From Eledone cirrhosa (Eukaryota), in contig OZ024742.1 of assembly GCA_964016885.1 (NCBI GenBank), positions 322,338,001 to 322,402,000 of the forward strand: 64,000 nt of DNA, written 5' to 3'. This document shows positions 1,410 to 53,023 of this stretch, in pieces. How positions within the stretch are numbered: position 1 is the first letter of the stretch; every line of letters begins with the position of its first letter. Made by a program: the position numbers and the translations under genes. A model generated the notes under the pieces. That model had not been told where the DNA came from, did no database searches, and saw only the letters and a list, made by a program, of their open reading frames with translations.

Positions 1410-2040
1410 TAGCAGCAGCACCACCACCACCATCATCATCCCCATCGCCGCTGCCACCATTACAACAACCACCACCACCACCACTACTTCCACCATCTAC
1501 ATTATAATTACCCCATCATCACGCCAAAGCCGCTGCCACCATTACAACCACCACTACCTCCACCATCGACATTATAATTACCCCACCACCGTCATTACTC
1601 CCACAGTCACCATCATCCCCATCGCCCCTGCCATCATCACTACAACCACCACCATCATCATCTTTATCACAATAACCATAATATAGTAATAAATATCATC
1701 AGATGCTGAAGCAGTTTCTCTTTTGTCTTCTTTCTCGTCCACCTTTTTTCACAACATCGCCGTCATCGATTCCACCACCACCTCACCACCGCCACTACTA
1801 CTACTAATAATGATCTGCTCTACCACCATACCACTATCATCACCAACAACAACAACAGCAACACATCACTACTATTAATACTACCAACAGTACTGTACTT
1901 CTAATCTACACTACTAATACCCCACCACCATCACCGCCACCACCACCAGCACCACCATCATCACTATCACTACCGCCGCCACCACCAGCATACCTACTAC
2001 CAACACTACTACACGTTCCTACTCCTACCACCATCGCCTA
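1410..2040. repeat. (CAC/CAT/ACT)n low-complexity tract
   Basis: Direct inspection. Confidence 0.8.
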
Positions 2041-2322
2041 GTTTAGACGGACACATGGCTGGAATAGAGCTATTAATAAGCTACAGGTAACGGAGAGAGA
2101 GAGAGAGTGAGTAAGGAAGACAGTGAGAGACACAGTAAAAGAGAGAGGCGAAGATACACACACCAACTGACTACGTTAGGAGAGACAAGGTGAGTGGAGC
2201 TTTTACAAAATTTACCTTAAATATATATATATATGTGTGTGTGTGTGTATGTATATATATATGTGTATATATATGTATATATATATATGTGTGTGTGTGT
2301 ATGTATGCATGTATGTATCATC

Positions 2323-2353
<31 letters not shown>

Positions 2354-2397
2354 GCGATATATGTGTGTGTGACTGTCTGTATATGTATGTGTTAAAT

Positions 2398-2792
2398 CAG
2401 CGGGCTCCCACCCTGTGGTTTCCAGACCCGTTGGGACGTAGGACCGTGGGTTTGCTAAGTAGACAGATCTTTCAAAAGCCTAGTTGGGACCTTGTGAATA
2501 TAAACTTTGAAGAAAATGAAAATATTTCGTCTGATTCACTGGATTCATTGCGTATGTACACATTGAAGTCGGGGTTAGAGTTAAGGTTAAGGTTAGGGTC
2601 AGATTTAGAGTTTACAGTCAGTTGGGGTTCTTTCGTAAGCTCGTACGTATGTAGGAACGGAGCCTGCATATTGAATCTGATGAATCCAAACGAGGTATTT
2701 TCATTTTCTTCAAAAGAGATCTATTATCAGTAATATCCAAAGTCATTTATATATACAGTGTCCTTTAGCAGTGAAAGGTTGGGAAACCACTG
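2398..2792. mobile_element. hAT-like MITE with a nested inverted-repeat element containing TTAGGG-like repeats
   Basis: Termini cagcgggctcccacc / ggttgggaaaccactg; internal arms tttgaagaaaatgaaaata (~2506) and tattttcattttcttcaaa (~2696); ggggttagagttaaggttaaggttaggg in the middle. Confidence 0.5.
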
Positions 2793-2924
2793 TTGTTAAT
2801 TAAATCTTTTTTTTTTCACTGTTGTTGTTGACGTTGTTGTTATTTAGTCCCAGGTCAACTTTATGATAAAAAGCATACATGTCTTATTACCTTTTTTTAA
2901 AGGCATAATGTAACACACACGCGC

Positions 2925-3000
<76 letters not shown>

Positions 3001-3465
3001 CTTTTTAAGACTGTAAGACGTAATTTAAGGGAGATTTGGCTGCTATTTCTAGCATATTGAGCAACTACGTTAGGGTTCGCCCGTTGTTGTTGATAATGTT
3101 ATTGTTTATGTTTAGCTCCAGGTCAGCCCTGATCGAGCAGGCCTTAGGATCAAAGCCTATTCCAGATCTGATTCTCCTACTTTTATTAGTGGACAAATGT
3201 GAAAGGTAAGCCCCCAGAACTGGTAATAAGCCCAGGCTATATGTGAAATGTAGTCTCTTCGCCACCCCTACCACCCCAAATAATTATAGGCCCAAGTCAG
3301 ATGTAAAATGTAAACCTTCAAAACTGGTCATAGACCCAGGCCAAATGAAATATGTAGGCCCCATTTCAAACGGCTCATAAAGTAGTTTAGTAATCAGTGT
3401 TAAATACATATGATTTATGCATAGGTTACATGTAGATGTAGTGTATATGTTGGACTTACGCGTGA

Positions 3466-16109: not shown

Positions 16110-16216
16110 TTTTCCTGACATTTGTACATTATTCTATGTACTATACATGCACCTTTGATGAGTTGTAGTGCACCTGAGCACTGTACACAATAATTTCATT
16201 ATTATTATTATTATTA
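16110..16216 (+). mobile_element. Orphan CR1 3' end
   Basis: Matches reverse complement of ~21000-21090, including gtgc-acctga-gcac hairpin and (ATT)n tail. Confidence 0.8.
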
Positions 16217-20265: not shown

Positions 20266-21109
20266 AAGAAATATAATAATACAATGCTTACAGAACGAAA
20301 GCACAAATAGTGAGAAGCAATCGTAATGGGGAAGGTAAAAAATTAACTCCGTAATGGGGAAGGTAAGAAGTAAATCACCGCTAGGAGTAAGTTTTGTTTT
20401 AGTGTCGATACTTTTAAATTAAAGAGATGTTATAATGATAATCTTGCTGAATACGTGCGTATTCAAATATGAAACTAACAATAATCGGGAAGTATAAAAC
20501 ATTAACTTATCTTCTTTTATATATATATTTATATTGATTTATGTGTATGTCCTTCCATCTTGGCTATTTCCTCATAACTTTTTAGATGTTGATTACGGTT
20601 ATGTTAATAACCGCAGAAATTATTGGGAGTTGTTTGTGACTTTAAAACGAAATATTACCAAAGAAAAAAATTTTTAAAGTCAATAAAAGAAATATCCACG
20701 ATAAAATGAAACATTTATTTCTATAATTTAAGAAAATCAAGTTATTTTTTCACATTCCCCCATTATCGTTAATTTATTTTTAAATACGTACGTAATCGGC
20801 AAGATTACACACACAGATATATATAAACTGACATTGCCCTTTTGTTGATGTTTCGTTTTGGTATACGAAGCAACAGACACATGGATTTAAAATAAAACTG
20901 AATGAAACATTATTAGCACCTTAGGCAATGTTCTTTCTTTCCTGGGACCGTTATATATATGCGTGTGTGAGTGGAGAGAGAAAAGAGGGAGATTTATATA
21001 ATAATAATAATAATGAAATTATTGTGTAAAGTGCTCAGGTGCACTACAACTCGTCAATATAGTACATAGAATAATACACAAATGTCAGGGAAGTACATGT
21101 GTGTATGTG

Positions 21110-23938
21110 TTAGCTGTTCTGTTGGCGGATCTCGGGAAGCATGGAGGCCTTGAAGGATGCAGTGTCTCGACAGCTAACAACTGATGCAGGTAGTTTGTTC
21201 CATGCTTCAGCAACTCTGAGCGTGAAAAAATGTTTCCGAAAGTCATGGGAACTGTGCTGTTTTCTTACTTTGTGGGCATGTCCACGTGTGTTAGACACAT
21301 GGAAATCGAAAAGGTACTCAGGGTTGTTGTTGGCAACATGGTTAACAATTTTGTGGGTGTTTACCAAGTCAGTTGCCAGGCGTCGGAGCTTCAATGAATC
21401 CATGCCCAGGGAAGCAAGGCGCTCAGAGTATGGTAGATGCCTGATGGAGGGTATTCGCTTGGTTGCACGTTTCTGAACAGTTTCCAGGCGGTCAATGTCC
21501 TGAGCAAGATAGGGGTTCCAGACTGGTGATGCAAATTCTAAGTGTGATCGCACCATAGCTGTATACAGCCTTAAATAGATATCTGGAGAGCGGCTGACAA
21601 AGGTCTTGCTGAGTGATGCTAAGACACCCTCGGCCCTCTTGACAATTTTAGAGACGTGCCTCGTCCAACGCAAATCGCTGCTGACCGTAATGCCCAGGTC
21701 ACGTTCACAGGAAGACTTCTTGATATTAGTGCTGTGGAGGGAGTATGTGGACGCTGGGTTTTTACTCCCAAAATGCATGGTGGTGCACTTGTCCACAGCT
21801 AGCTTGAGTTGCCAGTCTGAGATCCACTGTTGCATTGCGTCCAGGTCAGACTGCAAGCAAGATCTATAATGTTCAGGATATGTCCTTTTTATCTCAAGGT
21901 ACAGCTTGATGTCGTCTGCGTACTTTAGTACTGTGGCATTCCTTAAGTTGGCATCTATGTCATTAATATATGCCACAAACAAAAGGGGGCCAAGAACAGA
22001 TCCCTGTGGTACACCAGATGCCATCTCAAATGGTGAGGAATGCTGTCCCAGAACCGTGACTACCTCTCTTCGACTGAGAATGAAGGACTTCAACCAGTTA
22101 AAAAGATCATCCTTCACACCCATTGCAGAGAGTTTTGCCATAAGCCTTTTGTGTGGCACAGAATTGAAGGCCTTCGCAAAGTCAAGGTAAACAACATCCA
22201 CCCATGAGCCGCCATCAGTGATCCGGGTGATGTCCTCAAGAAACTCTATAAGTTGATCACAGCAGCTGGAGTTGGGGATAAATCCAAATTGCGAGGGCCG
22301 GATAAGACTGTGAGAGCTCCAGAAGTTCCAAAGTGTTTCTCTGACACAGGATTCCATCAGTTTAGCGATGCAACTAGTAAGACTGACTGGACGATAGTTC
22401 ACAGGTGATGTGCGGTCACCCTTTTTGAACAGAGGAATGACACTGGCAGTTTTCCACTGTTCTGGAGTAGCACTGTTGTTCAGACAGAATTGGAAGAAGC
22501 GTGATAACTGGTGTAGAAGGAAGTACCCACCACGTTTAAGAAGCAGGTACGTAACACCATCAAGACCAGGAGAGGCATGGTTGCGTTTATTTTTTAGGTG
22601 ACGTCGCAGCATTGCAGGTGTAAATTCCATGGTTGTAATAGAGTCCAGTGTCATAGGTGGTGGAGATGGTACACTCTGGTCTTCAATAGTGAAAATGCCT
22701 GCATAGCATTCAGCAATGAGCTCTGCGCATTCCTTGGGGTCGTCAGTAACCTGGCTTGTGTGAGGATTGCGAAGAGGACCAACTGGAGAGTGAGGCCTCT
22801 GCTTTGAGTGAACATACTTCCAGAACACCTTACTGTCAGGGCTGGTTGCTATGCGCTGCTCAAATTGAAGCACTGCCTTTTTTGTCACCTGTTTGAGGTG
22901 GTTGGACGATCTATTTCGCCTCTTCCTATTAATGTCTGATTTGTGAAGTTTGTACTCACGTTCAGCATTGCGCCGTTCTTTTCTGGCAAGACGGACTGCT
23001 GCAGTCTCCCAAATTGCGCTTTTGGGATGTTTTTTCCGCTTACGTGGCACCGATGCTGCACATGCTGTCCATATTGAGCTCAGGATGTTCTGGAGTACAG
23101 TGTTGACATCTCCAGAGTCGTAGAACTCAAGCCAGTTTGGCCGTTGCAACTCGGTGCAGTAACAGTTCCAGTCTGCTTTATTCCAGTCAAAGTGAGCAGT
23201 TTGGAGATGGCTGTGGTTCTTGTTACTGCCCATGAGGGATAGATTGGCAATGATCATAGCATGATCAGAGTCACCTAAAGGTTCCTCAGCAGTAACACTA
23301 ATGACCGTTTCAGGAGTAGTGGTGAAGAGTAGGTCCAAAGTGTTGTCACCTCTCGTTGGGGAGGTGACCACCTGGGACCAACTCGAGTCCAGCACCAGCT
23401 CAAGGAAGTCATTTGCACTTGGCGGCCAACGAAAGGTCTCCCAGTCAATCTCAGGGTGATTGAAGTCACCTGCAATGAAAACATAAGTGGCTGTCTTCCT
23501 GGCAGCAGCTCTGAGGATATCACAAAGTTGAGTGTCCTGATGGTAATTTGGGGGACGGTAAACGACTCCAAGTAGCAGTGTTGACATGGTCATACGTATA
23601 TCGCAGAAAAAAACTTCCTGCTGTGATTGGTTCAAATCAGCACAAGGAATTGCCGACAGATTTGACCGAACGTAGACCATTACACCACCACCACCACGAT
23701 TAATACGGTCTTTACGAAACAGGTTGTAGCCAGTCATGCTGAAAACCCCATCACAGAGTAAGGGATGTGCCCAAGTTTCCGTGACTGTAATGAAGTCCGG
23801 GTTGATACTTTTGACGTAGGAGTAAAAAAGATGAATCTTATTGCATAGACTACGTGCATTCAAGGACAACAATTTGTACTTTGATTCCAGTCTATGATTA
23901 TGTGCAGGGGATGGCAGGTTGTTCTGATTTAGTTTCCC
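21110..23938 (-). CDS. CR1 ORF2: AP endonuclease + reverse transcriptase, uninterrupted, no AUG start
   Basis: LNARSL, VTETW, GDFN, TLDL, SDH (APE); YRPVSLTS, YLDFAKAF, GVPQGSVLGP, YADD, DLG (RT); CR1-type C-terminus NTRGH..FF..RV..WN.LP. Confidence 0.95.
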   Translation of the reverse strand, partial: GKLNQNNLPSPAHNHRLESKYKLLSLNARSLCNKIHLFYSYVKSINPDFITVTETWAHPLLCDGVFSMTGYNLFRKDRINRGGGGVMVYVRSNLSAIPCADLNQSQQEVFFCDIRMTMSTLLLGVVYRPPNYHQDTQLCDILRAAARKTATYVFIAGDFNHPEIDWETFRWPPSANDFLELVLDSSWSQVVTSPTRGDNTLDLLFTTTPETVISVTAEEPLGDSDHAMIIANLSLMGSNKNHSHLQTAHFDWNKADWNCYCTELQRPNWLEFYDSGDVNTVLQNILSSIWTACAASVPRKRKKHPKSAIWETAAVRLARKERRNAEREYKLHKSDINRKRRNRSSNHLKQVTKKAVLQFEQRIATSPDSKVFWKYVHSKQRPHSPVGPLRNPHTSQVTDDPKECAELIAECYAGIFTIEDQSVPSPPPMTLDSITTMEFTPAMLRRHLKNKRNHASPGLDGVTYLLLKRGGYFLLHQLSRFFQFCLNNSATPEQWKTASVIPLFKKGDRTSPVNYRPVSLTSCIAKLMESCVRETLWNFWSSHSLIRPSQFGFIPNSSCCDQLIEFLEDITRITDGGSWVDVVYLDFAKAFNSVPHKRLMAKLSAMGVKDDLFNWLKSFILSRREVVTVLGQHSSPFEMASGVPQGSVLGPLLFVAYINDIDANLRNATVLKYADDIKLYLEIKRTYPEHYRSCLQSDLDAMQQWISDWQLKLAVDKCTTMHFGSKNPASTYSLHSTNIKKSSCERDLGITVSSDLRWTRHVSKIVKRAEGVLASLSKTFVSRSPDIYLRLYTAMVRSHLEFASPVWNPYLAQDIDRLETVQKRATKRIPSIRHLPYSERLASLGMDSLKLRRLATDLVNTHKIVNHVANNNPEYLFDFHVSNTRGHAHKVRKQHSSHDFRKHFFTLRVAEAWNKLPASVVSCRDTASFKASMLPEIRQQNS

Positions 23939-25163
23939 AGAGTTTTTTCAGTTTCTTTATTGTCAGTTGTTGTGGGTACAGTGTTTTCAGACCAGCTGGT
24001 GTCTCTTTTCCATGATTCGCCAGCCTTAACAAACTTCCATATCTGCCCATCATCTCGTAGGCTGAAGCTTTCATGTTCTGCCGAGCTGCGGTTTAGGCAA
24101 GCTGCAGCACGCAACTTTGGGCGGACATCAGGTGGAAGACCAGGACGTGTTCGGAAAGCAATCGGACTTTCACGCCTAGCTTTATCAGAGGCTACAAGGT
24201 ATGAACGTGCCTCAGTTGAGTTGGAAAACGACAGTCTAATTAACCTGGGTTTCGGGCCTGGTCGGCCAAGGCGTAGAGCACCCTTTGCGGGAGCACAGCC
24301 CAGGTCTTTGGATGAACTGGCAGCAAATGCCTGAAGATCAACTATGTCTTCCGGCACACCAATGGCAATCACTTCGTGGTTTGCAGATTCAGTGGCATTC
24401 TCAATGCGTCTAGGTTCAACATGAGGTACGCGGAGATTTTTTAACAAGGCACTCCGGTAAGATCCCTCATTGTGGTGTTCTACACGAACGCTTGATTTTA
24501 TTTCCGCTATTTCTTGACTTAAAGCGGAAATCATTTGCCGTATTTCCTCAAACTCCGTATTGACGGTCGGTTTTTGTTGTTGTTCTTCTCCTTCAACAGG
24601 CATGGCAGAAGACACAGTCGTCGGTTGTTGTTGTTGAAAACTAACGGGTGAGGAAGACATGGGTTGCTGTTGTTGATGAAGTCCTTCAACGGGGTAGTAG
24701 CAGAAGCTACGGTCGTTGGTTTTTGCTGTTGTTCAGGGACAATGGTAGAGGAAGACACGATCCTCGGTTTTTGTTGTTGTTGTTCAGGAACAATGGTAGA
24801 AGACACGATCTTCGGTCTTTGTTGTTGTTGTTGTTCCGCAGCAATGGGAGAAGCAGGCATACAGTCCAGGCACTGAAAGGACCAGTTTGTTAGCTGGACC
24901 ATCTCCCAGAGTCTATCCATCGTAGCAATATGATGTTTCTTATTTTGGCCTGGGATTTTCCGGAAGCCTGTGGCGCATTGAAGGCAGACATAGATGCGAC
25001 AGGTTCCACATTCGACCCAACGATTACTTAACGAGTTTTCGGGTTCCGTACAGATATGGCACGTGTGATCTTCCGGGCAATGTTCTATTTTGCCACATCG
25101 ACCAGTTTTGTCGCATACTCCATCGACGGATATCACCATGGCAATTTTGTTATTTCTACCCAT
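23929..25163 (-). CDS. CR1 ORF1 (PHD-like finger, Q-rich repeats, coiled coil), split by a 1-nt deletion near 24692
   Basis: CHIC..WVECGTC....CLQC..CLDC; adding one base to the G4 run at 24691-24694 joins the two track ORFs into ~411 aa. Confidence 0.85.
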
Positions 25164-25859
25164 CCGTAGAAAAACACAGAATCTAAACAATATAGGTTTA
25201 GCGCACTTGATTACGATAGAAATAAAATGTCTGTTTTTTTGTTTTGTTTTTTGTGTATTTTGTTTCCGTTTTCCTAAATGTTGTGTGTGTACAGAAGAGT
25301 CTGTGCATGTAAACAAATAAATATGCTGCGTAAGTTAAATGAAACGTACTGTAGAAGGCAGTTGTTTATTAACAGCGAAATAACGTTTTTTTTTTGTTTT
25401 TTTTTTCCCCCTGATACTGCTTCTTTATAATAAACTTTCAATAATATTTTTTTTCTTCAAATTATTAACTTTCAGCTGCTAGTATATATATATAATTAAA
25501 AGGTGTATGTGGGTTAGAAGCGAAGTCAATGTTAAGAAATATTTTACCAATGTAAATTGGTAAAATTGGCCGGTATAGTGTCTCACACGAAATAGTGTGG
25601 TTTCTTTTCACGTGTGTGTATATGCATATTGTATATATCTGTATATAAATCTGTGTGTATATTGTTGTTTATGTTTTGTGTAGTACTTACTGCCATCCTT
25701 AAGCGATGTAGTGATTTGTTTTTTTGTTTTTTTCCTTTTTTCACCGTCCATGTCCACACGTGGTTTGTTGGCTAAAACTGTTCTTTGCTTCAGTTTGTCT
25801 ACACAATATAAAGCTCTAAACATTTGTTTATTGAACACTCTTATAAATTCTTGATTTAG

Positions 25860-26658: not shown

Positions 26659-26811
26659 CATCATCATCACCCCACCACCACCACCACCGCCATCATCATC
26701 ACCGCCACCATCATCATCACCACCACCATCATCGTCACTACCATCATCATCATCACCACCATCATCATCGTCACCACCATCATCGTCACCACCACCATCA
26801 TCATCACCATC

Positions 26812-26845
<34 letters not shown>

Positions 26846-27082
26846 CCACCATCATCGTCACCATCACCACCATCATCGTCACCACCATCATCGTCACCAC
26901 CACCATCATCATCACCACCACCACCATCATCATCATCGTCATCACCATCATCGTCACCACCACCATCATCATCATCATCATCACCACCACCACCATCATC
27001 ATTATCATCATCACCACTATCATTATCATCATCACCACCACCACCGTCAACACCATCATCACCACCACCACCACCATCATCC
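26659..27082. repeat. (CAT/CAC)n trinucleotide tract
   Basis: Direct inspection. Confidence 0.9.
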
Positions 27083-27274
27083 TCGTCTCTTGTCCATTTC
27101 ATGGGTTGGACAGGTCTTCTCCAGCATACCACCTCTTCACCTTTCTGTCTGTTTGACAGTCTATATGTCTTTCTGACAGTTTGCTTATCTATCAATCTGA
27201 TTATATGTATCTCTTTATCTCTTTCTATATCTATCTATCTACTTACATCTCTCTCTTTCCACATATATATATAT

Positions 27275-29857
27275 ATCATCATCATCATCAGGTTTAGCGT
27301 CCGTGTTCCACGCTTGCATGGGTTTGGACGGGGTTTTCCCACTTGAGGCAAGAGTGGTTGTCTTGCTCGCATAGGACTGTCTGGCGGGTTTTCTACAGTT
27401 GGATGCCCTTCCTAACACCAACCACATTTACAGTGTGGGACTGGGAGGTTTTTACCGTGTTGCCTACACGGCCACATTACAGCGTGGACTGTCTGGCGGG
27501 TTTTCTACAGCTGGATGCCCTTCCTAACACCAACCACATTTACAGTGTGGGGCTGGGAGGTTTTTACCGTGTTGCCTACACGGCCACATTTACAGCGTGG
27601 ACTGTGTGTTTTTTTGTCGTGACACCTACACGATCTCATTTGTTTCGGCCTGGATGTTGTGGGACCAACATAACTGTACATTGAAAGGGGTGGTGTGGAT
27701 GGGGTGGAGGTGGTGGGACGGGGGGGGGGGGGGGGGGGTTTGATAGAGATGCCTACTGACTGTAGTAGGTTTTTACTTTGTATTTAGGTAAGGCGGGTCT
27801 TCTCTATTACTGAGTACCGCCAAAGGTCTCGGTCCAGTGACATTGTCTTGGAGAGGTGTAAGCGTGTGAGGTCGGAATTTATCAGCTCGTCCCATGTTTT
27901 TCTGGGTCTGCCTACTCCGTGGCTACCGTCTATCTTTATTGCCCTGCACTTTGTTATACAGCTGTTGTCTTTCATGCGCATCACGTGACCGTACCAACGT
28001 AGCCTTCTCTCGAGTAAACAACATCTGATCCCTCTTATTTCTAATTTTTTCCTTAGTTCGTTTATGCTTTGCCGTTCACGTATATTACTATTGCACATCC
28101 AGCGGAGCATGCAAGCTTCGTTCCTCTCTAGTCTGCGTATATCCTCTGCACACAATGCCCAGGTCTCACTGCCATGCAGCATTGCTGTTCGTATGCAGGC
28201 ATCGTATAACCTGCCTTTCATTTTTAGGGAGAACCCTCTAGCGGCTAATAGTGGTATAAGCTCTCTGAACTTTTTCCATCCAGTTCTGACTCTAGCTACT
28301 GTACTTTCAGAGCACCCTCCCCCACTGCTGATTTTGTCACCCAGGTAACGGAAGCTGTCCACTATTTCTATAGAACCCTCTGCGCAGTTGAAGGAGCTAG
28401 TATTTTGTGGGCACTTGCTGCTACTTATTGCACCAGAGCACCGGCCACATGTAAAATCTATGTTCTTAGTTAGCTTACCTGTGATCCCACTACATCTTTT
28501 ATGCACCCATACTTTGCATTTGGGACATAAAATGGAGTTTCTACCTACGCCTTTCCTACACACTGAGCATGGCCATTTCCCAGATGGGACTGCCGCCATA
28601 TTTTCTTTCCTACAAACTAGAACTTTTGTCTTAGCCAGGTTAATTTTAAGGCCTTTTGATTCTAGGCCGTGCTTCCATGTTTGGAGTTTCTTCTCTAGTT
28701 CGGTCATTGATTCAGCTATGAGCGTTAGATCATCTGCGTATAGGAGTTCCCATGGGCAGCCGGTCTTGAACTCCTCTGTTATAGCCTGAAGGGCAATAAT
28801 AAATAGTAGGGGGCTAAGAACAGAGCCCTGATGGACACCAACTTTTACGCTAAACTCTTCACTATATTCGTTGTTAATTCTAACCTTACTGACTGTTTCT
28901 TTATACATGGCTTGTATAGCTCTCACAAGCCATTCGTCAACACCTAGTTTTCTAAGAGACCACCAGATAATGGAACGAGGGACTCTGTCGAAGGCTTTCT
29001 CCAAGTCGACGAAAGCTAAGTATAGGGGTTTACTTTTAGCCAGGTACTTCTCCTGTAGTTGTCGTACAATGAAAAGAGCGTCTGTGGTACTTTTGCCTGA
29101 CACAAATCCGAACTGCATTTCATCTAGATCAATTCTCTCTCTGATTAGTTGCGCTATTACTTTTTCCGTGACCTTCATGACCTGGTCGATGTGGGGGAGA
29201 CTGTCTTTCTCCCATTTGTTCTCCTCATTTAGAAGCCTTTCGTAGTGACACTTCCAAGCTACCTTCTTATCAGCGTCGGTGATGGCAAGTATGCCATCAT
29301 CGTTAAGCACACACTTCTCCCCGACAATATCACGGTTTTCCTTGACACATTGCCTGGCAATCCTGAACACCTCACGTTTTTGGTCCTCACGTTGTAGAAC
29401 ATGCTTGAACTTTCTTTCCTCTGCTTCCCTTCTTGCGAAGTACACTTGTCTCCTAGCTTCCCTCCTGGCTACCTGATAGTCTTCTCTACTTCCCCCATCC
29501 CGCCATGCTTTCCAAGCCTGCTTTTTGGCCTTAATTGACTCCTCCACCTTACTGTTCCACCACCATGTTACTCTCCTCCTACCTACAGGCCTGCTCCAGC
29601 CACAGACTTCGTCTGCCGCCGTCAGCAGGTTTGCTCTCAGGAATTCCCACTGTTCCTCTATATTATACGACTCTAATTGTTCTTCCTTACTGTCGAAAGC
29701 GTCAAGTAATATGCTTTGAAATTTATTTCTGGCTATGGGGTCCTTTAGCTTCCATATTTTTCTCCTGAGGATAGTCCTCTTCCGCTGTCTAGTACGTCTC
29801 GTCCTGACTATGAGGTCGCTAATTATCAGTCTATGTTGGGAGGTGAATTCTTCATGG

Positions 29858-29860
<3 letters not shown>
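27275..29860 (-). mobile_element. 5'-truncated RTE-clade LINE with internal deletion
   Basis: (GAT)n tail adjoining a (TA)n tract; 3' UTR with two ~112-bp units; ORF as below. Confidence 0.92.
27784..29858 (-). CDS. RTE polyprotein fragment (end of APE, partial RT, CxxC insert, C-terminus)
   Basis: Frame open from PHEEFTSQHRL; QFGF, FVDLEKAFD, GVHQGSVLSP, YADD, FRYLG, RLRWYGHV, GRPRKTW. Confidence 0.85.
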
Positions 29861-29891
<31 letters not shown>

Positions 29892-44515: not shown

Positions 44516-44629
44516 TTCCAGTTACTAATATTGCAAATTAGTTCATATTTTATAATAATGCACGTTTATTGATTGCCACATCCTGTTTACTGTAGCCCTC
44601 ACCACCACCACTCGCCTGTCCTGCTTACA

Positions 44630-46270
44630 AACATATACATACATACACACATACTTACATACACATATGCACATACATATATACATCATGCATATATGCA
44701 TATACGTACATACATACATACACACATGCACATATACATACATATATACATACATACATATATGCATGCATACATACATACATACACACATGCATATATA
44801 CATACATACATACACACATGCATATATACATACATACATATATACATACATACATATATGCATGCATACATACGTATATACATACATACATACACATGCA
44901 TATATATACATACATACATATATATATACATACATATATGCATGCATACATACGTATATACATACATACATACATACACACATGCATATATACATACATA
45001 CATATATGCATGCATACATACGTACTTACATACATACATACACATCCATATATACATACATATATACATACATACATACACACATGCATATATACATACA
45101 TACATATATGCATGCATACATACGTACTTACATACATACATACATACACATGCATATATACATACATATATATATACATACATATATGCATGCATACATA
45201 CATATATACATACATACATACATACATACACACATGCACATATACATACATACATATATACATACATATATGCATGCATACATACGTACTTACGTACATA
45301 CATACATACATTGTATATACATAGATACAATTTAGCTTGGAAAATTGGTGTTAAATGATGAAATCATACACACATGCATATACATAGAATGGGAGAGGAA
45401 GAGAGACATACATATACACAGAGAGGGAGAGAGAGACATACATATACACAGAGAGGGAAAGGGGGAGAGACATACATATACATAGAGAGGGAGAAGGAGA
45501 GAGACACATATACATAGAGAGGGAGAGAGAGAAACATACATATACATAGAGAGGGAAAGTGAGACATACATATACACAGAGAGGGAAAGGGAGAGAGAAA
45601 TACATATACATAGAGAGGGAGAGAGAGAAACATACATATACATAGAGAGGGAGAGAGAGAAACATACATATACATAGAGAGGGAAAGTGAGACATACATA
45701 TACATAGAGAGGGAGAGAGAGACATACATATACACAGAGAGGGAAAGGGGGAGAGACATACATATACATAGAGAGGGAGAAGGAGAGAGACACATATACA
45801 TAGAGAGGGAGAGAGAGAAACATACATATACATAGAGAGGGAAAATGAGACATACATATACACAGAGAGGGAAAGGGAGAGAGAAATACATATACATAGA
45901 GAGGGAGAGAGAGAAACATACATATACATAGAGAGGGAAAGTGAGACATACATATACATAGAGAGGGAAAGGGAGAGAAACATACATATACATAGAGAGG
46001 GAGAGAGAGAAACATACATGTACATAGAGAGGGAGAGAGACATACATATACATAGAGAGGGAGAGAGAGAAACATACATATACATAGAGAGGGAAAGAGA
46101 CATACATATACATAGAGAGGGAGAGAGAGAAACATACATATACATAGAGAGGAAGAGAGAGAAACATACATATACATAGAGAGGGAAAGGGACACATACA
46201 TATACACAGAGAGGGAAAGAGAGAAAAACATACATATACATAGAGAGGGAGAGAGACATACATATACACA
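44630..46270. repeat. (CATA)n tract followed by GA-rich ~30-bp minisatellite
   Basis: acatacatatacatagagagggagagaga units. Confidence 0.9.
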
Positions 46271-46959
46271 AGACACACAGGCATATATACAAACATACAG
46301 ACAACCATGCACAGGCACATGAACACACACACACATGCATGCATAGACATAGGCATACATACACATGCACACAATCACACACACACATCAGCACATACGC
46401 CTCCACATTTGCATATATAAAGACTTACATACACACATACATGTACGGGCACACACATACACACACATGAACACACAGACACACACACGTGTCTGCACAC
46501 ACATACATGCATGCACACACACAGACTCAGACACACACATTCAGGCTCATACATCCCCATATATTCATACACTCAGCAGCGTACTTACAAACGCCTACAA
46601 ACACATGTACACTCACGCATGCTCATATGTGCACATTCACACATGTGCATGCACACACACACACACATGCAGACGCACATACGCCCCCACACTTGCATAC
46701 ATAGACATACACAAACATACATACACCATATTTTTCTATTACTGCCCCACCCCAACTCTATAGCATCACCGCCTCCTTTACTTCCATGGTAACAACACCT
46801 CTCTCTCTCTCTGTGATGATGATGATGATGTCCTTATCATAATCATCATCCTATTCTCACCACACTGTACCATCACCTCCTCCACCATCACCACCACTAC
46901 CACACCACACTTCCAGCAATAACAGCAACAATAACGCCACAGCCACAACCACCACTAAC

Positions 46960-49065: not shown

Positions 49066-50869
49066 ATATAAGTAAGGTAGTCAGTTTGGCAGAGTTATTA
49101 GAGCTTTGGATACTTGTTCCAGGCCTCTGTGTTCTGAGTTCAAATCAGGCCGAAGTCCGCTTTGCTTTCATCTTTTTAGGATAATTAGTGAAAGTACTAA
49201 CCCAGGGCTGGCACAGCCCTCTCTCCTTTCAGCTCTTACATTCTAGAAGTTCTGCAGGATCAAAGAAGAAAAAGGTTGTGAGGGTGCCTGTGTCTACTCA
49301 TGACTGCATGGGCACCTAAAACTTGATTGTGTGTGATAGTTGTAATTGTTTTGTAGTTAAGTGGAATTCGACAAGATCCCAGACCTCATTTGCTTGCTGA
49401 GTGGGGTGAACCTCGTCAAATCAGGCCAAGAAAACAATGTTTCCATTGGTCTTTCTATTGCTGATACTATCTACTGGTCGCAACTCTTAGCGAATGAGCA
49501 GTATGAAACAAAGTGTCTTGCTCAAGGACACAAAGCATCACCTGGTCCGAGAATTGAACTTGCAACCTCACAATTGCGAACCCAAGTCTCTAACCACTAA
49601 ACCACATGCCTTCACTAATGTTTTGTAGTATATAAGTGTAAACCTTGGGTTTTAGTTGTAGGATTGTTTGTCCTTTTTTTTTACCCTTTTGATAGCAACC
49701 CAGGCAAAAGAAGCAATTGTATGCATCGTTTTGACCCTTTTGATAACAACCTGCCTGGGACGGGCACTACTATTTTAATGAGTTCATATATAAATTAAAA
49801 CTTTCCAGCATCATGTAAGAATATTTCTACCAGTTATGCTTTAAACATCAGCTCAATAATGAAACATTATTTTATTTAATTCCTCCAAATTTTCCATTAT
49901 TTTTGAAATTGATACTAGCAGATAGGAAGTATATTTCATTCAAAATATTATAACTTCTAACATAATTTTATATAAGAACTATATGTTGAGTTATTATCTT
50001 AGTAATGAAATGAATAATAATTTTAGTAAATCCCTCAAAATTCTTAATTAATTAATTAATTGAATTAGTGTATTTTATTAGAAATAGAGGCATGAAAGGG
50101 TTTATCCTTCACAAAAACCTATTATTATAACGATTGTTTCTGTTTTCACTCTCCGTATTTCTAGATCTTTATATTTTTGATTTTGACGTATTGTGTTTGA
50201 AGTTGTCTCTGGATTATTATGGGGTTGGCTATTTCTGGTGTGTAATTCTTTTAGATTGTGTTTTTTTATGTTGCCCTGTGAAAGAATAGGAAATTTACAG
50301 CTCACACCTATGCAGGTTTAACAAGCCTTATACAAAGTTGCATCTTATAGGAGGTTTCTTGGGTGTTTTAATTCTTTCATAACCATATTTATAATGAAAT
50401 ACACTGGATTTGAATTAATCAGTGAAGAATTTTGAGAAATTTACTAAAATAGTTAATTATTTCATTATAAAGATGGGATTTGATATATAATTTATCAAAG
50501 GGTTCTTATGTCAAATTAGTTAATTATTTAATTATAAAGATGGGATTTGAAATCTAATTTATCAAAAGGTTCTTATGTTAAATTATTTTGGATGATTTTA
50601 ATTTAAATAGAAAACCTTAAAAATTGATTATTTTGTTTCATAGAACCAGAGGCCATTTTGAGCAGGTTGGTATCAAAAGGATTAAGGATATGGTCTTTAG
50701 TCATATACACACACTTATGTATGTATGTTGTTACAGCTAAGACATATGCAGGTTTGGCTGGCCTCCTACAAGATTGTTCCTCATAGGAGGTTTCACAAGT
50801 GTTTTCATAATAGAGGATCCAATCTTATGAAAGGCCAAGTGAAATGATGCATCTTTTCCCTATCTACAA

Positions 50870-51770
50870 CACCACCATTACCATCATCATCATCACCAAC
50901 AACAGCAATATCACCACCACTATCATCAACAACACCACCATTACCATCATCATCTACACCACCATCATCACCAACAACAGCAATATCACCACCACTACCA
51001 TCAACAACACCACCATTACCATCATCATCTACACCACCATCATCACCAACAACAGCAATATCACCACTACCACCATCAACAACACCACCATTACCATCAT
51101 CACTGACACCAGCAGCATCATCAGCAACAGCAATACCACCAATACCACTACCACCATTACCATCATCACTGACACCAGCAGCAGCATAAGCAACAGCAAT
51201 ACCACCAATACCACTTCTACCATCAACAACACCACCATTACCATCATCACGGACACCAGCAGCATCATCAGCAACAGCAATACCACCAATACCACTTCTA
51301 CCATCAACAACAACACCACCATTACCATCATCACAGACACCAGCAGCATCATCAGCAACAGCAATACCACCAATACCACTTCTACCATCAACAACACCAC
51401 CACCATTACCATCATCACTGACACCAGCAGCATCATCAGCAACAGCAATACCACCAATACCACTTCTACCATCAACAACACCACCACCATTACCATCATC
51501 ACTGACACCAGCAGCATCATCAACAACAGCAATACCACCAATACCACTTCTACCATCAACAACACCACCACCATTACCATCATCACTGACACCAGCAGCA
51601 TCATCAGCAACAGCAATACCACCAATACCACTTCTACCATCAACAACACCACCACCATTACCATCATCACTGACACCAGCAGCATCATCAGCAACAGCAA
51701 TACCACCAATACCACTTCTACCATCAACAACACCACCATTACCATCATCACCTACACTACCATTATCATC
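50870..51770. repeat. ~90-bp trinucleotide-derived minisatellite
   Basis: 30-codon periodicity visible in the track ORFs. Confidence 0.9.
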
Positions 51771-53023
51771 ATTAATAAAAGCAATATCACCAAACTGAAT
51801 GACACATTGTATCCTTGAACAAGACACTCCATTTGATGTTGACTAGTCCACTCAGCTAGAGGTTAACCTTGTGTTAGATTGGTCTTCCATCCAAGGACAA
51901 GCCTTGCTGTTTCAGTCACTTAATGTCAATGAAACTGGGATCAACTCTGAATTGATGAGCTTCAGGGCTTGAGACAGACTTTAATTTCAAAATATAATAA
52001 TAATATATAGATTTCACAAAATGATATTTGTAAACTAATTGTGATTATGTTGTTGATGGCAGAGTTGATAGTGGCGGTGGTGGTAGTGATTGTGTTGTTG
52101 TTATTGACAGTGGTATTGATGATGGTGTTGGTGGTGGTGGTATTGTTGTTGATAATTATAGTGATGGTGGTGTAAGTAATGGTGTATTTATTTATTATTG
52201 CTGATGATGTTGGTGTAGATGATGATGGTGTGGTGGCGGTAGTGTTATTGCTAAAAGTGGTATTGTTGTTACTGATGTAGATGGAGGGGGTGTTAGTAAA
52301 GATGGTGGTCTTATTGCTGATGGTAGAAGTGGTGGTGGTGATGTTGCTGATGATGATGGTGTTGTTGTTGCTGATGATGGTAATGCTATTGATAATGATG
52401 ACAGTGGTGGTGATTATAAATATATGTATGTTGAACTACATGTTTCCATATTTGGAGTGGTGGTGTTGGTGGTGGCAGTGATGGTGGTGGTGGTGGTGGA
52501 GGTGGTGGTGATAGTGGTGTCGGTGTTGTTGGTGGTGTTAGTGTTAGTGTTGGTGGTGGCAGTGATGGTGGTGGTGGTGGAGGTGGTGGTGACAGCAGTG
52601 GCAGTGGTGGTATAGAGATATGGAATATTTGGTATATCTAATAAAAAGATCAGTTCAGAAGGAAATTAAATCATTTATTGATATAGGGGGATATCAATAT
52701 GACATGTAGAGGTGGGACACACACAGGCGCGCACATACACACATACTCACATGCATGCACACACGCATGCTCACATGCACTCACACACATATGTATATAA
52801 ATATGTATGTATCCTTGCTACCAGGAAAAACATGTTAAATGATGATGAAGAGGCTGATGAGAATGATGATATATGCATATATCATCAACACCATCATTTT
52901 ACGTCCATTTTTCCACTCTAGCATGGGTTAGACGAGTTGTCCTGTTGTGGGCAATGTCTTGCTCATACTGATTTTGGCTTGGTTTCTACAGCTGGATGCC
53001 TTTCCTAATGCCAATATATATAA

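Follow-up and report, generated by a model that had tools for sequence, protein, structure and literature searches.

Programmed −1 ribosomal frameshifting as the best explanation for ORF2 expression in a CR1-type LINE of Eledone cirrhosa

How do ribosomes reach the second open reading frame (ORF2) of a retrotransposon when it overlaps the first frame out of register and has no AUG ahead of its endonuclease? This question is raised by a 64,000-nt stretch of Eledone cirrhosa DNA (assembly GCA_964016885.1, contig OZ024742.1, positions 322,338,001–322,402,000), referred to below as the window. The element concerned is a near-full-length retrotransposon without long terminal repeats (non-LTR). It occupies the minus strand between 21000 and at least 25227 and is filed here as a CR1-type long interspersed nuclear element (LINE). 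Comparison of its sequence with those of its relatives indicates that ORF2 of this family is very probably expressed by programmed −1 ribosomal frameshifting, which would yield an ORF1-ORF2 fusion, as an earlier note on this DNA had proposed.

The 3′ end of ORF1 (23929–25160; 410 codons in the family, two frames in the window copy) reads CUG GGA AAC UAA. Its final two codons, Gly-Asn, form part of the slippery heptamer G_GGA_AAC (GGGAAAC, 23932–23938), which the UAA stop (23929–23931) adjoins directly. [quoted passage not shown] Since ORF2 codons begin one base 5′ of ORF1 codons, its register is −1, and a UGA in that frame (23948–23950), three codons 5′ of the heptamer, limits the overlap to 19 nt. 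The ORF1 ending, the −1 register and the short overlap bounded by a nearby UGA, all described in the earlier note, were thus confirmed on the minus strand, which carries all features of the element given below.

The first in-frame AUG of ORF2 (23735–23737) is codon 71, and none occurs upstream in that frame. When a family profile was compared with L1 ORF2p, the Asn of the NARS motif (codon 30; 23860–23858) aligned with N14 and the Glu of the ETW motif (codon 57) with E43, residues of L1 which we take to be catalytic. The alignment was obtained by the profile search; a search of solved structures with a single endonuclease sequence gave no matches. Both residues lie 5′ of codon 71, and therefore a protein started there would lose them, which bears out the earlier placement of this AUG beyond the endonuclease N and E motifs. 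In the Candida element Zorro3, mutation of the Asn matching that of NARS leaves retrotransposition below 5% (PMC1965478).

In the proposed mechanism, ribosomes on the capped RNA would begin at the ORF1 AUG (25160) and translate 410 codons, and the majority would terminate at the UAA, releasing ORF1p. A minority would slip one base back on G_GGA_AAC, with tRNA-Gly moving from GGA to GGG and tRNA-Asn from AAC to AAA. The former stop position would then be decoded as Leu, and a 24-codon linker would lead into the endonuclease and RT. The product would be an ORF1p-ORF2p fusion of ~1350 residues (410 from ORF1 and 940 from ORF2), made at a low fixed ratio like Gag-Pol. PMC5009743 counts G_GGA_AAC among the four heptamers most prone to shifting. 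Canonical in-phase heptamers occupy 6 of 1416 codon positions in the element's own ORFs, the slip site included, and the overlap offers four heptamer positions, so that chance occurrence amounts to ~1–2% for the window element alone. These single-element odds are modest; the weight comes from conservation.

Related LINE loci were compared, the set being the best 80 of 393 confirmed loci (at least 598 pattern matches). Eight loci could not be anchored, and the other 72 formed 54 clusters at 80% identity, 37 of which had an automatically callable ORF1 of at least 150 codons. ORF2 was in the −1 register in 29 of these 37 clusters, in +1 in six and in frame in two (P = 2.5e-8 against one third). 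Inspection of the +1 calls by eye showed that four (L001, L007, L012 and L044) are broken copies in which the end of ORF1 is in the −1 register, and that a fifth (L047) has a U_UUA_AAC-UAG end and a damaged register. The sixth, L043, departs genuinely from the pattern: a Met precedes its Asn by six codons. The U_UUA_AAC heptamer with its stop was seen in L022 as well as in L047.

A canonical heptamer was present in the overlap of 16 of the 29 −1 clusters, compared to 1.5 expected from the ORF1-body rate (13 per 8912 positions). With the XXX variants of PMC5009743 allowed, a definition that was widened after G_GAA_AAC had been seen in the data, the count rose to 23, compared to 4.5 expected. 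Resampling in which the ORF1 peptide was fixed, synonymous codons were redrawn according to the usage of each element and the −1 frame was kept open gave expectations of 7.6 (canonical; P = 1.5e-5) and 10.8 (wider definition; 0 of 200,000 resamplings). Canonical heptamers were found 18 times in the right phase, and once and six times in the wrong phases. Median distances of the first site are 4 codons from the −1 stop upstream of it and 24 codons from the ORF1 stop that follows. The −1 frame is kept open starting at the heptamer and no earlier, a pattern that fits a shift on the heptamer, not a restart after the stop. When clusters were picked by the downstream peptide alone, 15 of 23 had a slippery heptamer immediately 5′ of it (1.8 expected); a quick tree spread the slip sites over several well-supported subclades. 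At the level of sequence, the heptamer and the −1 register are a real feature, conserved well beyond chance.

The closest locus among the best 80, L001, has an endonuclease 59% identical to that of the window element and an ORF1 40–53% identical. Its ORF1 ends in CAG GGA AAC UAG, its ORF2 is in −1 and a UGA is located two codons upstream; the flanks of its heptamer have diverged, with 12 of 45 and 15 of 45 nt matching the window on either side. The ORF1 homolog P0121 (64% identical; seen as protein) likewise terminates in Gly-Asn. A search with the C-terminal part of ORF1 yielded 72 representatives (50%-identity clusters), of which 7 without the C-terminal Trp motif were dropped. In the length-variable tails of the remaining 65, Gly-Asn occurred in 50 (shuffled tails: mean 7.5, maximum 16 in 2000 shuffles), and GN, EN or KN after a compatible residue in 63 (mean 17.8, maximum 28). 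Not one of 52 Gly-Asn occurrences was preceded by a residue without a G-ending codon; such residues make up 20% of the tails. The dipeptides would be the footprint expected of G_GGA_AAC, G_GAA_AAC and A_AAA_AAC. The heptamer, whose loss the earlier note had regarded as damaging to a shift, or its amino-acid footprint is thus kept in distant relatives. Scans of viral contigs and prokaryote genomes found no related DNA. One Gly-Asn-ending homolog (P0199, in the cluster of P0192) comes from a transcriptome-derived set labelled Ancora sagittata, and may represent an element of that organism or of its host.

Several observations weigh against frameshifting. In six of the 29 −1 clusters no heptamer is found, even under the wider definition. 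Of the 29, 17 have no AUG in the interval from the upstream stop to the Asn and three have one within 10 codons of the Asn, but in nine an AUG is found more than 10 codons upstream of it. In L001 an AUG falls within the first endonuclease strand, two codons 5′ of the Asn. P0002 (59% identical; protein only) lacks Gly-Lys ahead of the Asn; 59 codons are open there, with a start called among them, and its ORF2 may be translated from its own AUG. The P values overstate independence because the clusters are kin, and the 65 ORF1 homologs are known as protein alone, without codons or a downstream ORF2. Minority heptamer variants may exist among the family copies, for which 40 of 270 substitution rows were seen. 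Finally, no stimulatory structure was detected across 54 sites (mean z −0.17, compared to +0.21 upstream).

The upstream AUGs of the nine clusters would suit the main alternative: as in mammalian L1, a separate ORF2p with a whole endonuclease would arise by termination-reinitiation or by leaky initiation at a non-AUG codon. Five near-cognate CUG/UUG codons precede the endonuclease Asn, and one of them, the in-frame CUG at 23888–23890, is in strong context (A at −3, G at +4), which makes it the best candidate for a non-AUG start, 38 nt past the ORF1 stop and ten codons 5′ of the Asn. L1 ORF2 is also known to tolerate the loss of its AUG (PMC1965478, PMC5009743). A restart at the CUG, however, leaves unexplained both the conservation of the heptamer and the opening of the −1 frame from the heptamer where this lies 20–87 codons before the ORF1 stop. 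Moreover, no near-cognate codon is present in L001 at the corresponding position, where three contigs of organism B show UUG without the +4 G (a hand reading of a loose end). This explanation is considered unlikely, although CUG restart and frameshifting may not exclude each other.

It could also be argued that the conserved letters reflect a constraint on protein or RNA (a Gly-Asn C-terminus, a Gly-Lys-Leu N-terminus, or a splice or packaging signal), and that ORF2 is expressed from a spliced or internally started RNA. The peptide-only nature of the 65 homologs would permit this, the eight of the 23 peptide-selected clusters that carry G_GGG_GAC/A instead of a standard shift site would be in keeping with it, and the invariant GUGGUAGG of one relative group (see below) resembles a splice donor. 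Yet in the loci seen as DNA the residues at the site vary (V/A/Q/P/E/S, then E/G/L/K, then N) while the preceding third base obeys the slippery rule, and the placement of Gly-Asn is variable (3–36 residues past the last conserved Trp motif and 0–23 before the stop), unlike that of a structural motif. Such a constraint is very improbable as the origin of the pattern, for which −1 frameshifting remains the favoured explanation.

The G_GGG_GAC/A sequences are at the position matching that of the heptamer in the other 15 clusters (L002:2033, L009:1417, L010:722, L024:1584, L030:1324, L060:227, L066:2340 and L080:2491). Two synonymous G positions are fixed in 8 of 8 of them (0.7 and 1.6 expected), the eight having been chosen by that run. 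It is possible that this non-standard sequence is a P-site-only −1 shift site. A different arrangement was observed in a separate well-supported clade (L033:2043, L052:153 and L057:128), where ORF1 and ORF2 share one frame, divided by a UGA that is followed by CUG, CUU and CUG, respectively. No AUG precedes the endonuclease Asn in L033 and L057, and the frame upstream of the UGA is open for 384 codons in L033 and to the contig start in L052 and L057. On the basis of these sequences the arrangement looks like stop-codon readthrough, UGA-CU being a stop context that we presume to be leaky. Four further loci (L045, L053, L059 and L063) have 247–633 open codons before the endonuclease Asn and are possibly natural single-frame fusions of ORF1 and ORF2.

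The window copy as assembled cannot use the slip site, because its ORF1 is broken upstream, at 24690–24694, where one base is missing in a homopolymer run. Most family contigs and reads have an extra base behind 24690 (run X1, depth 1866/1995; X21, 5/5 reads; also X5), which makes ORF1 a single frame of 410 codons. Both ORF1 pieces of the window copy are matched by the uninterrupted homolog P0121 (405 aa), with the frame change at the break, and translation from AUG 25160 in the window copy would end at the stop 24533–24531. The loss may be a mutation or an assembly error.

Family copies were examined by mapping 4 of 23 listed runs on 23650–25300 at 80% likeness, which provided 1279, 59 and 7 contigs (organisms A, B and D, respectively) and 4999 restriction site-associated DNA (RAD) reads from organism A. 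The RAD reads (126 at 99% likeness or more, 1948 at 95–99%, 2261 at 90–95% and 664 below 90%) may stem from few loci. Read depth in X21 over 23874–24041 was 1920–3011 per bin. In the four runs, no indel at 10% or more was found between 23650 and 24689, and the five rows of the indel table all fall within 24690–24819. A contig of organism B covering 23661–24012 has 58 substitutions and zero gaps. Among the 40 of 270 substitution rows listed (rows near-fixed in some run), none lies in 23928–24000, and six in the ORF2 frame create neither a new AUG nor a new stop. Hence, within these rows and the indel table, the family reads displayed no AUG upstream of the APE domain, which the earlier note had named as evidence that would speak against a shift, and no change of register.

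These data also bear on the idea that the junction is a copy-specific accident, i.e. that the active element is fused or has an upstream AUG and an indel separates the frames here, or that the slip occurs at transcription or reverse transcription. The window copy does have a one-base loss elsewhere, in ORF1, and the hundreds of open codons before the endonuclease in L045, L053, L059 and L063 are what a fused active element would show. The same survey that caught the ORF1 loss, however, found no junction indel; L001 and P0121 share the same ORF1 ending; and identical runs of three bases are generally held to be too short for typical polymerase slippage. An accident of this kind is largely refuted and seems hardly credible.

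If frameshifting on the heptamer is the route to ORF2, a stimulator might be expected, and several candidates were considered. The −1-frame linker that leads from the shift site to the first endonuclease Asn (23861–23928) contains no stable fold; z values against shuffles for the region downstream of the heptamer in the window were −0.21, 1.60 and 0.46 (upstream control −0.07), in agreement with the earlier failure to see a convincing pseudoknot. In the 54-site fold test, L001 gave z −2.3 and the window z +1.1. A consensus fold of 14 aligned junctions of the G_GAA_AAC type (group A) yielded 0 pairs. A crude pseudoknot in the window beat 98 of 100 shuffles, but it has a 5-bp first stem and loops of 13–21 nt, and its score is driven by a 9-bp helix 35 nt away; it was rejected, being absent from L001 (90 of 100 shuffles as good) and altered in its 5′ arm in three organism B contigs. 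A C-rich stretch 16 nt past the heptamer, which matches the arterivirus CCCANCUCC at 7 of 9 positions, was likewise rejected, since L001 lacks it.

The earlier suggestion that the adjacent stop acts as stimulator did not hold as a general rule: the stop directly follows Gly-Asn in only 8 of 50 homologs, and the median distance of 24 codons in the related loci is at odds with it. In a bacterial system that lacks release factor, −1 slippage can be favoured by a stop codon occupying the A site, in that case combined with a pseudoknot (PMC6321510); the adjacent stop is a possible stimulator in the window family, though not the rule among its relatives. A candidate of another kind is GUGGUAGG, which is invariant, synonymous positions included, in 14 of 14 aligned junctions (12 clusters), 12–19 nt past the heptamer (L004, L012–L015, L017, L020, L021, L023, L038, L039, L042, L046 and L061; e.g. 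L013:1419–1426). Both Val third positions of this motif are fixed, in 12 and 13 of 13 clusters (3.6 and 3.4 expected). It might be a protein-binding or sequence-level stimulator of frameshifting, or reflect a splice-donor-like or dual-coding constraint; the window family does not have it. The shift could accordingly be driven by low basal slippage on a strong heptamer, by slow termination at the adjacent stop where one is present, or by a bound protein.

A broader proposal is advanced tentatively, as a whole: −1 frameshifting would be the general ORF2 route of CR1-lineage LINEs in many hosts, making their replicative enzyme a fusion of ORF1p, endonuclease and RT, and would work without downstream RNA structure; the shift would occur via the heptamer alone or with a sequence motif or bound protein (as with the invariant motif 12 nt downstream in one group); and some lineages would use the non-standard G_GGG_GAC/A, and a sister group UGA-CU readthrough.

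The assignment of the element to CR1 is provisional, since its RT does not group with strong support with named CR1 elements to the exclusion of L2 and Jockey. ORF2 contains the endonuclease (~23866–23249) and the RT (~22420–21734) (Pfam: PF03372, 5e-15; PF14529, 5e-12; PF00078, 6e-38) and no other Pfam domain. The RT shares 37–39% identity with three proteins of turtle and stork that were taken as CR1 and 34% with a fourth, with a gap, and a C-terminal TRG..WN.LP motif is common to the window RT and these proteins. In a tree without a named L2 or Jockey reference, the RT clade of the window (6 rows, support 99) was not strongly joined to them. The 3′ untranslated region (UTR; 21000–21109) ends in an (ATT)5 tail (21014–21000), and a short tandem-repeat 3′ end, rather than poly(A), is presumably a mark of CR1. 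A 104-nt 3′-end fragment of the same family (16111–16214, plus strand; 86.5% identical) has its own tandem-repeat tail. The 5′ UTR is covered in part (25161–25227), family contigs reaching ~25227. A simple search found no target-site duplication of the element.

ORF1 consists of a Cys-rich PHD-like finger, a Gln-rich linker and a folded C-terminal part resembling an RRM and C-terminal domain. The Cys/His pattern was recognized by eye, Pfam giving weak zinc-finger matches only and, for P0121, no match; a lead from Atlas was Baculo_FP at 0.86. The ORF1 profile matches ORF1 of related loci, down to 1e-9, and five of six ORF1 homologs in one search were hypothetical proteins of Octopus vulgaris. 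The linker is encoded by degenerate CAA-rich tandem units of ~60–70 nt (24567–24830), the number of which varies among homologs.

Elsewhere in the window, a second LINE (27784–29889, minus strand), RTE-like by appearance, has an open frame of 701 codons containing an RT and, inside its C-terminal part, a PHD finger (PF00078, 1.5e-30; PF00628, 1.2e-5). Long arrays of CAC/CAT-type and other simple repeats (26660–27090, 44559–46424 and 50805–51842) give rise to spurious open frames.

A close parallel among known systems is −1 frameshifting of retroviruses and LTR elements (Gag-Pol; PEG10, PNMA3), where an X_XXY_YYZ site likewise ends the structural ORF and the polymerase ORF is in −1 without a start; shifting on such heptamers is established for retroviruses and LTR-derived genes (PMC5009743). 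The window element differs in being non-LTR, in having no protease and no stem-loop or pseudoknot 5–9 nt downstream, and in its product, which would be ORF1p joined to APE-RT. Among APE-type LINEs, Dictyostelium TRE5-A and TRE3-A need a −1 frameshift for ORF2, according to the figure legend of a review (PMC5911963). They belong to another lineage and host, and no TRE site or assay was found in the text available, whereas in the CR1 element the site is named and its conservation counted. Mammalian L1 and Zorro3 share a bicistronic LINE RNA and a low ORF2 level (PMC1965478, PMC5009743), but their ORFs do not overlap and an ORF2 AUG precedes the endonuclease, in contrast to the 19-nt −1 overlap without such an AUG in the window. 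For Paramecium LINEs, +1 shifting, reinitiation or readthrough was suggested (PMC5405496). Protein-stimulated frameshifting in arteriviruses and cardioviruses resembles the present case in lacking a typical downstream structure (PMC8915115), and one relative group has its invariant 8-nt motif 12 nt past the site; however, no trans factor is known for the CR1 element, and the motif is missing from the window family. CR1-lineage LINEs of types II/III, with a PHD and RRM ORF1, match the window element in APE-RT ORF2, an apparently PHD-like and RRM-like ORF1 and tandem-repeat tail (PMC4120745); the words "frameshift" and "overlap" do not occur in the available text of that paper.

A literature search, in which few subscription papers were covered, found no statement of CR1 frameshifting in print. 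The overlap may have been noted, and a frameshift proposed, in accounts of CR1 from chicken and turtle published in the 1990s and in reports of Repbase. No such statement is present in the available portions of PMC11835228, PMC4120745, PMC3905857, PMC5006619 and PMC13282606, and a review of frameshifting attributes LINE ORF2 to an unexplained AUG-independent initiation, with no CR1 case in its LINE passage (PMC5009743). Judged from sequence comparison, programmed −1 frameshifting that lacks a canonical stimulator is the best explanation of this locus in a CR1-type LINE, frameshifting itself having already been stated for the Dictyostelium TRE LINEs.

It is an open question how LINEs produce their second protein; L1, the element studied best, uses AUG-independent initiation that is unexplained. 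CR1-type elements rank among the commonest animal repeats; they form 11.8% of the chicken assembly (PMC11835228), and 13 recently active CR1-type families are reported from Octopus vulgaris (PMC13282606). The named heptamers and their structure-free context are open to direct reporter tests. If the proposed mechanism is true, gene prediction in which ORF2 begins at its first AUG loses the first motifs of the endonuclease, engineered CR1 constructs with ORF2 alone may be incomplete, and host factors acting on frameshifting become possible regulators. The CR1 enzyme would then be a Gag-Pol-like fusion, incorporated at a set ratio into the ORF1p particle.

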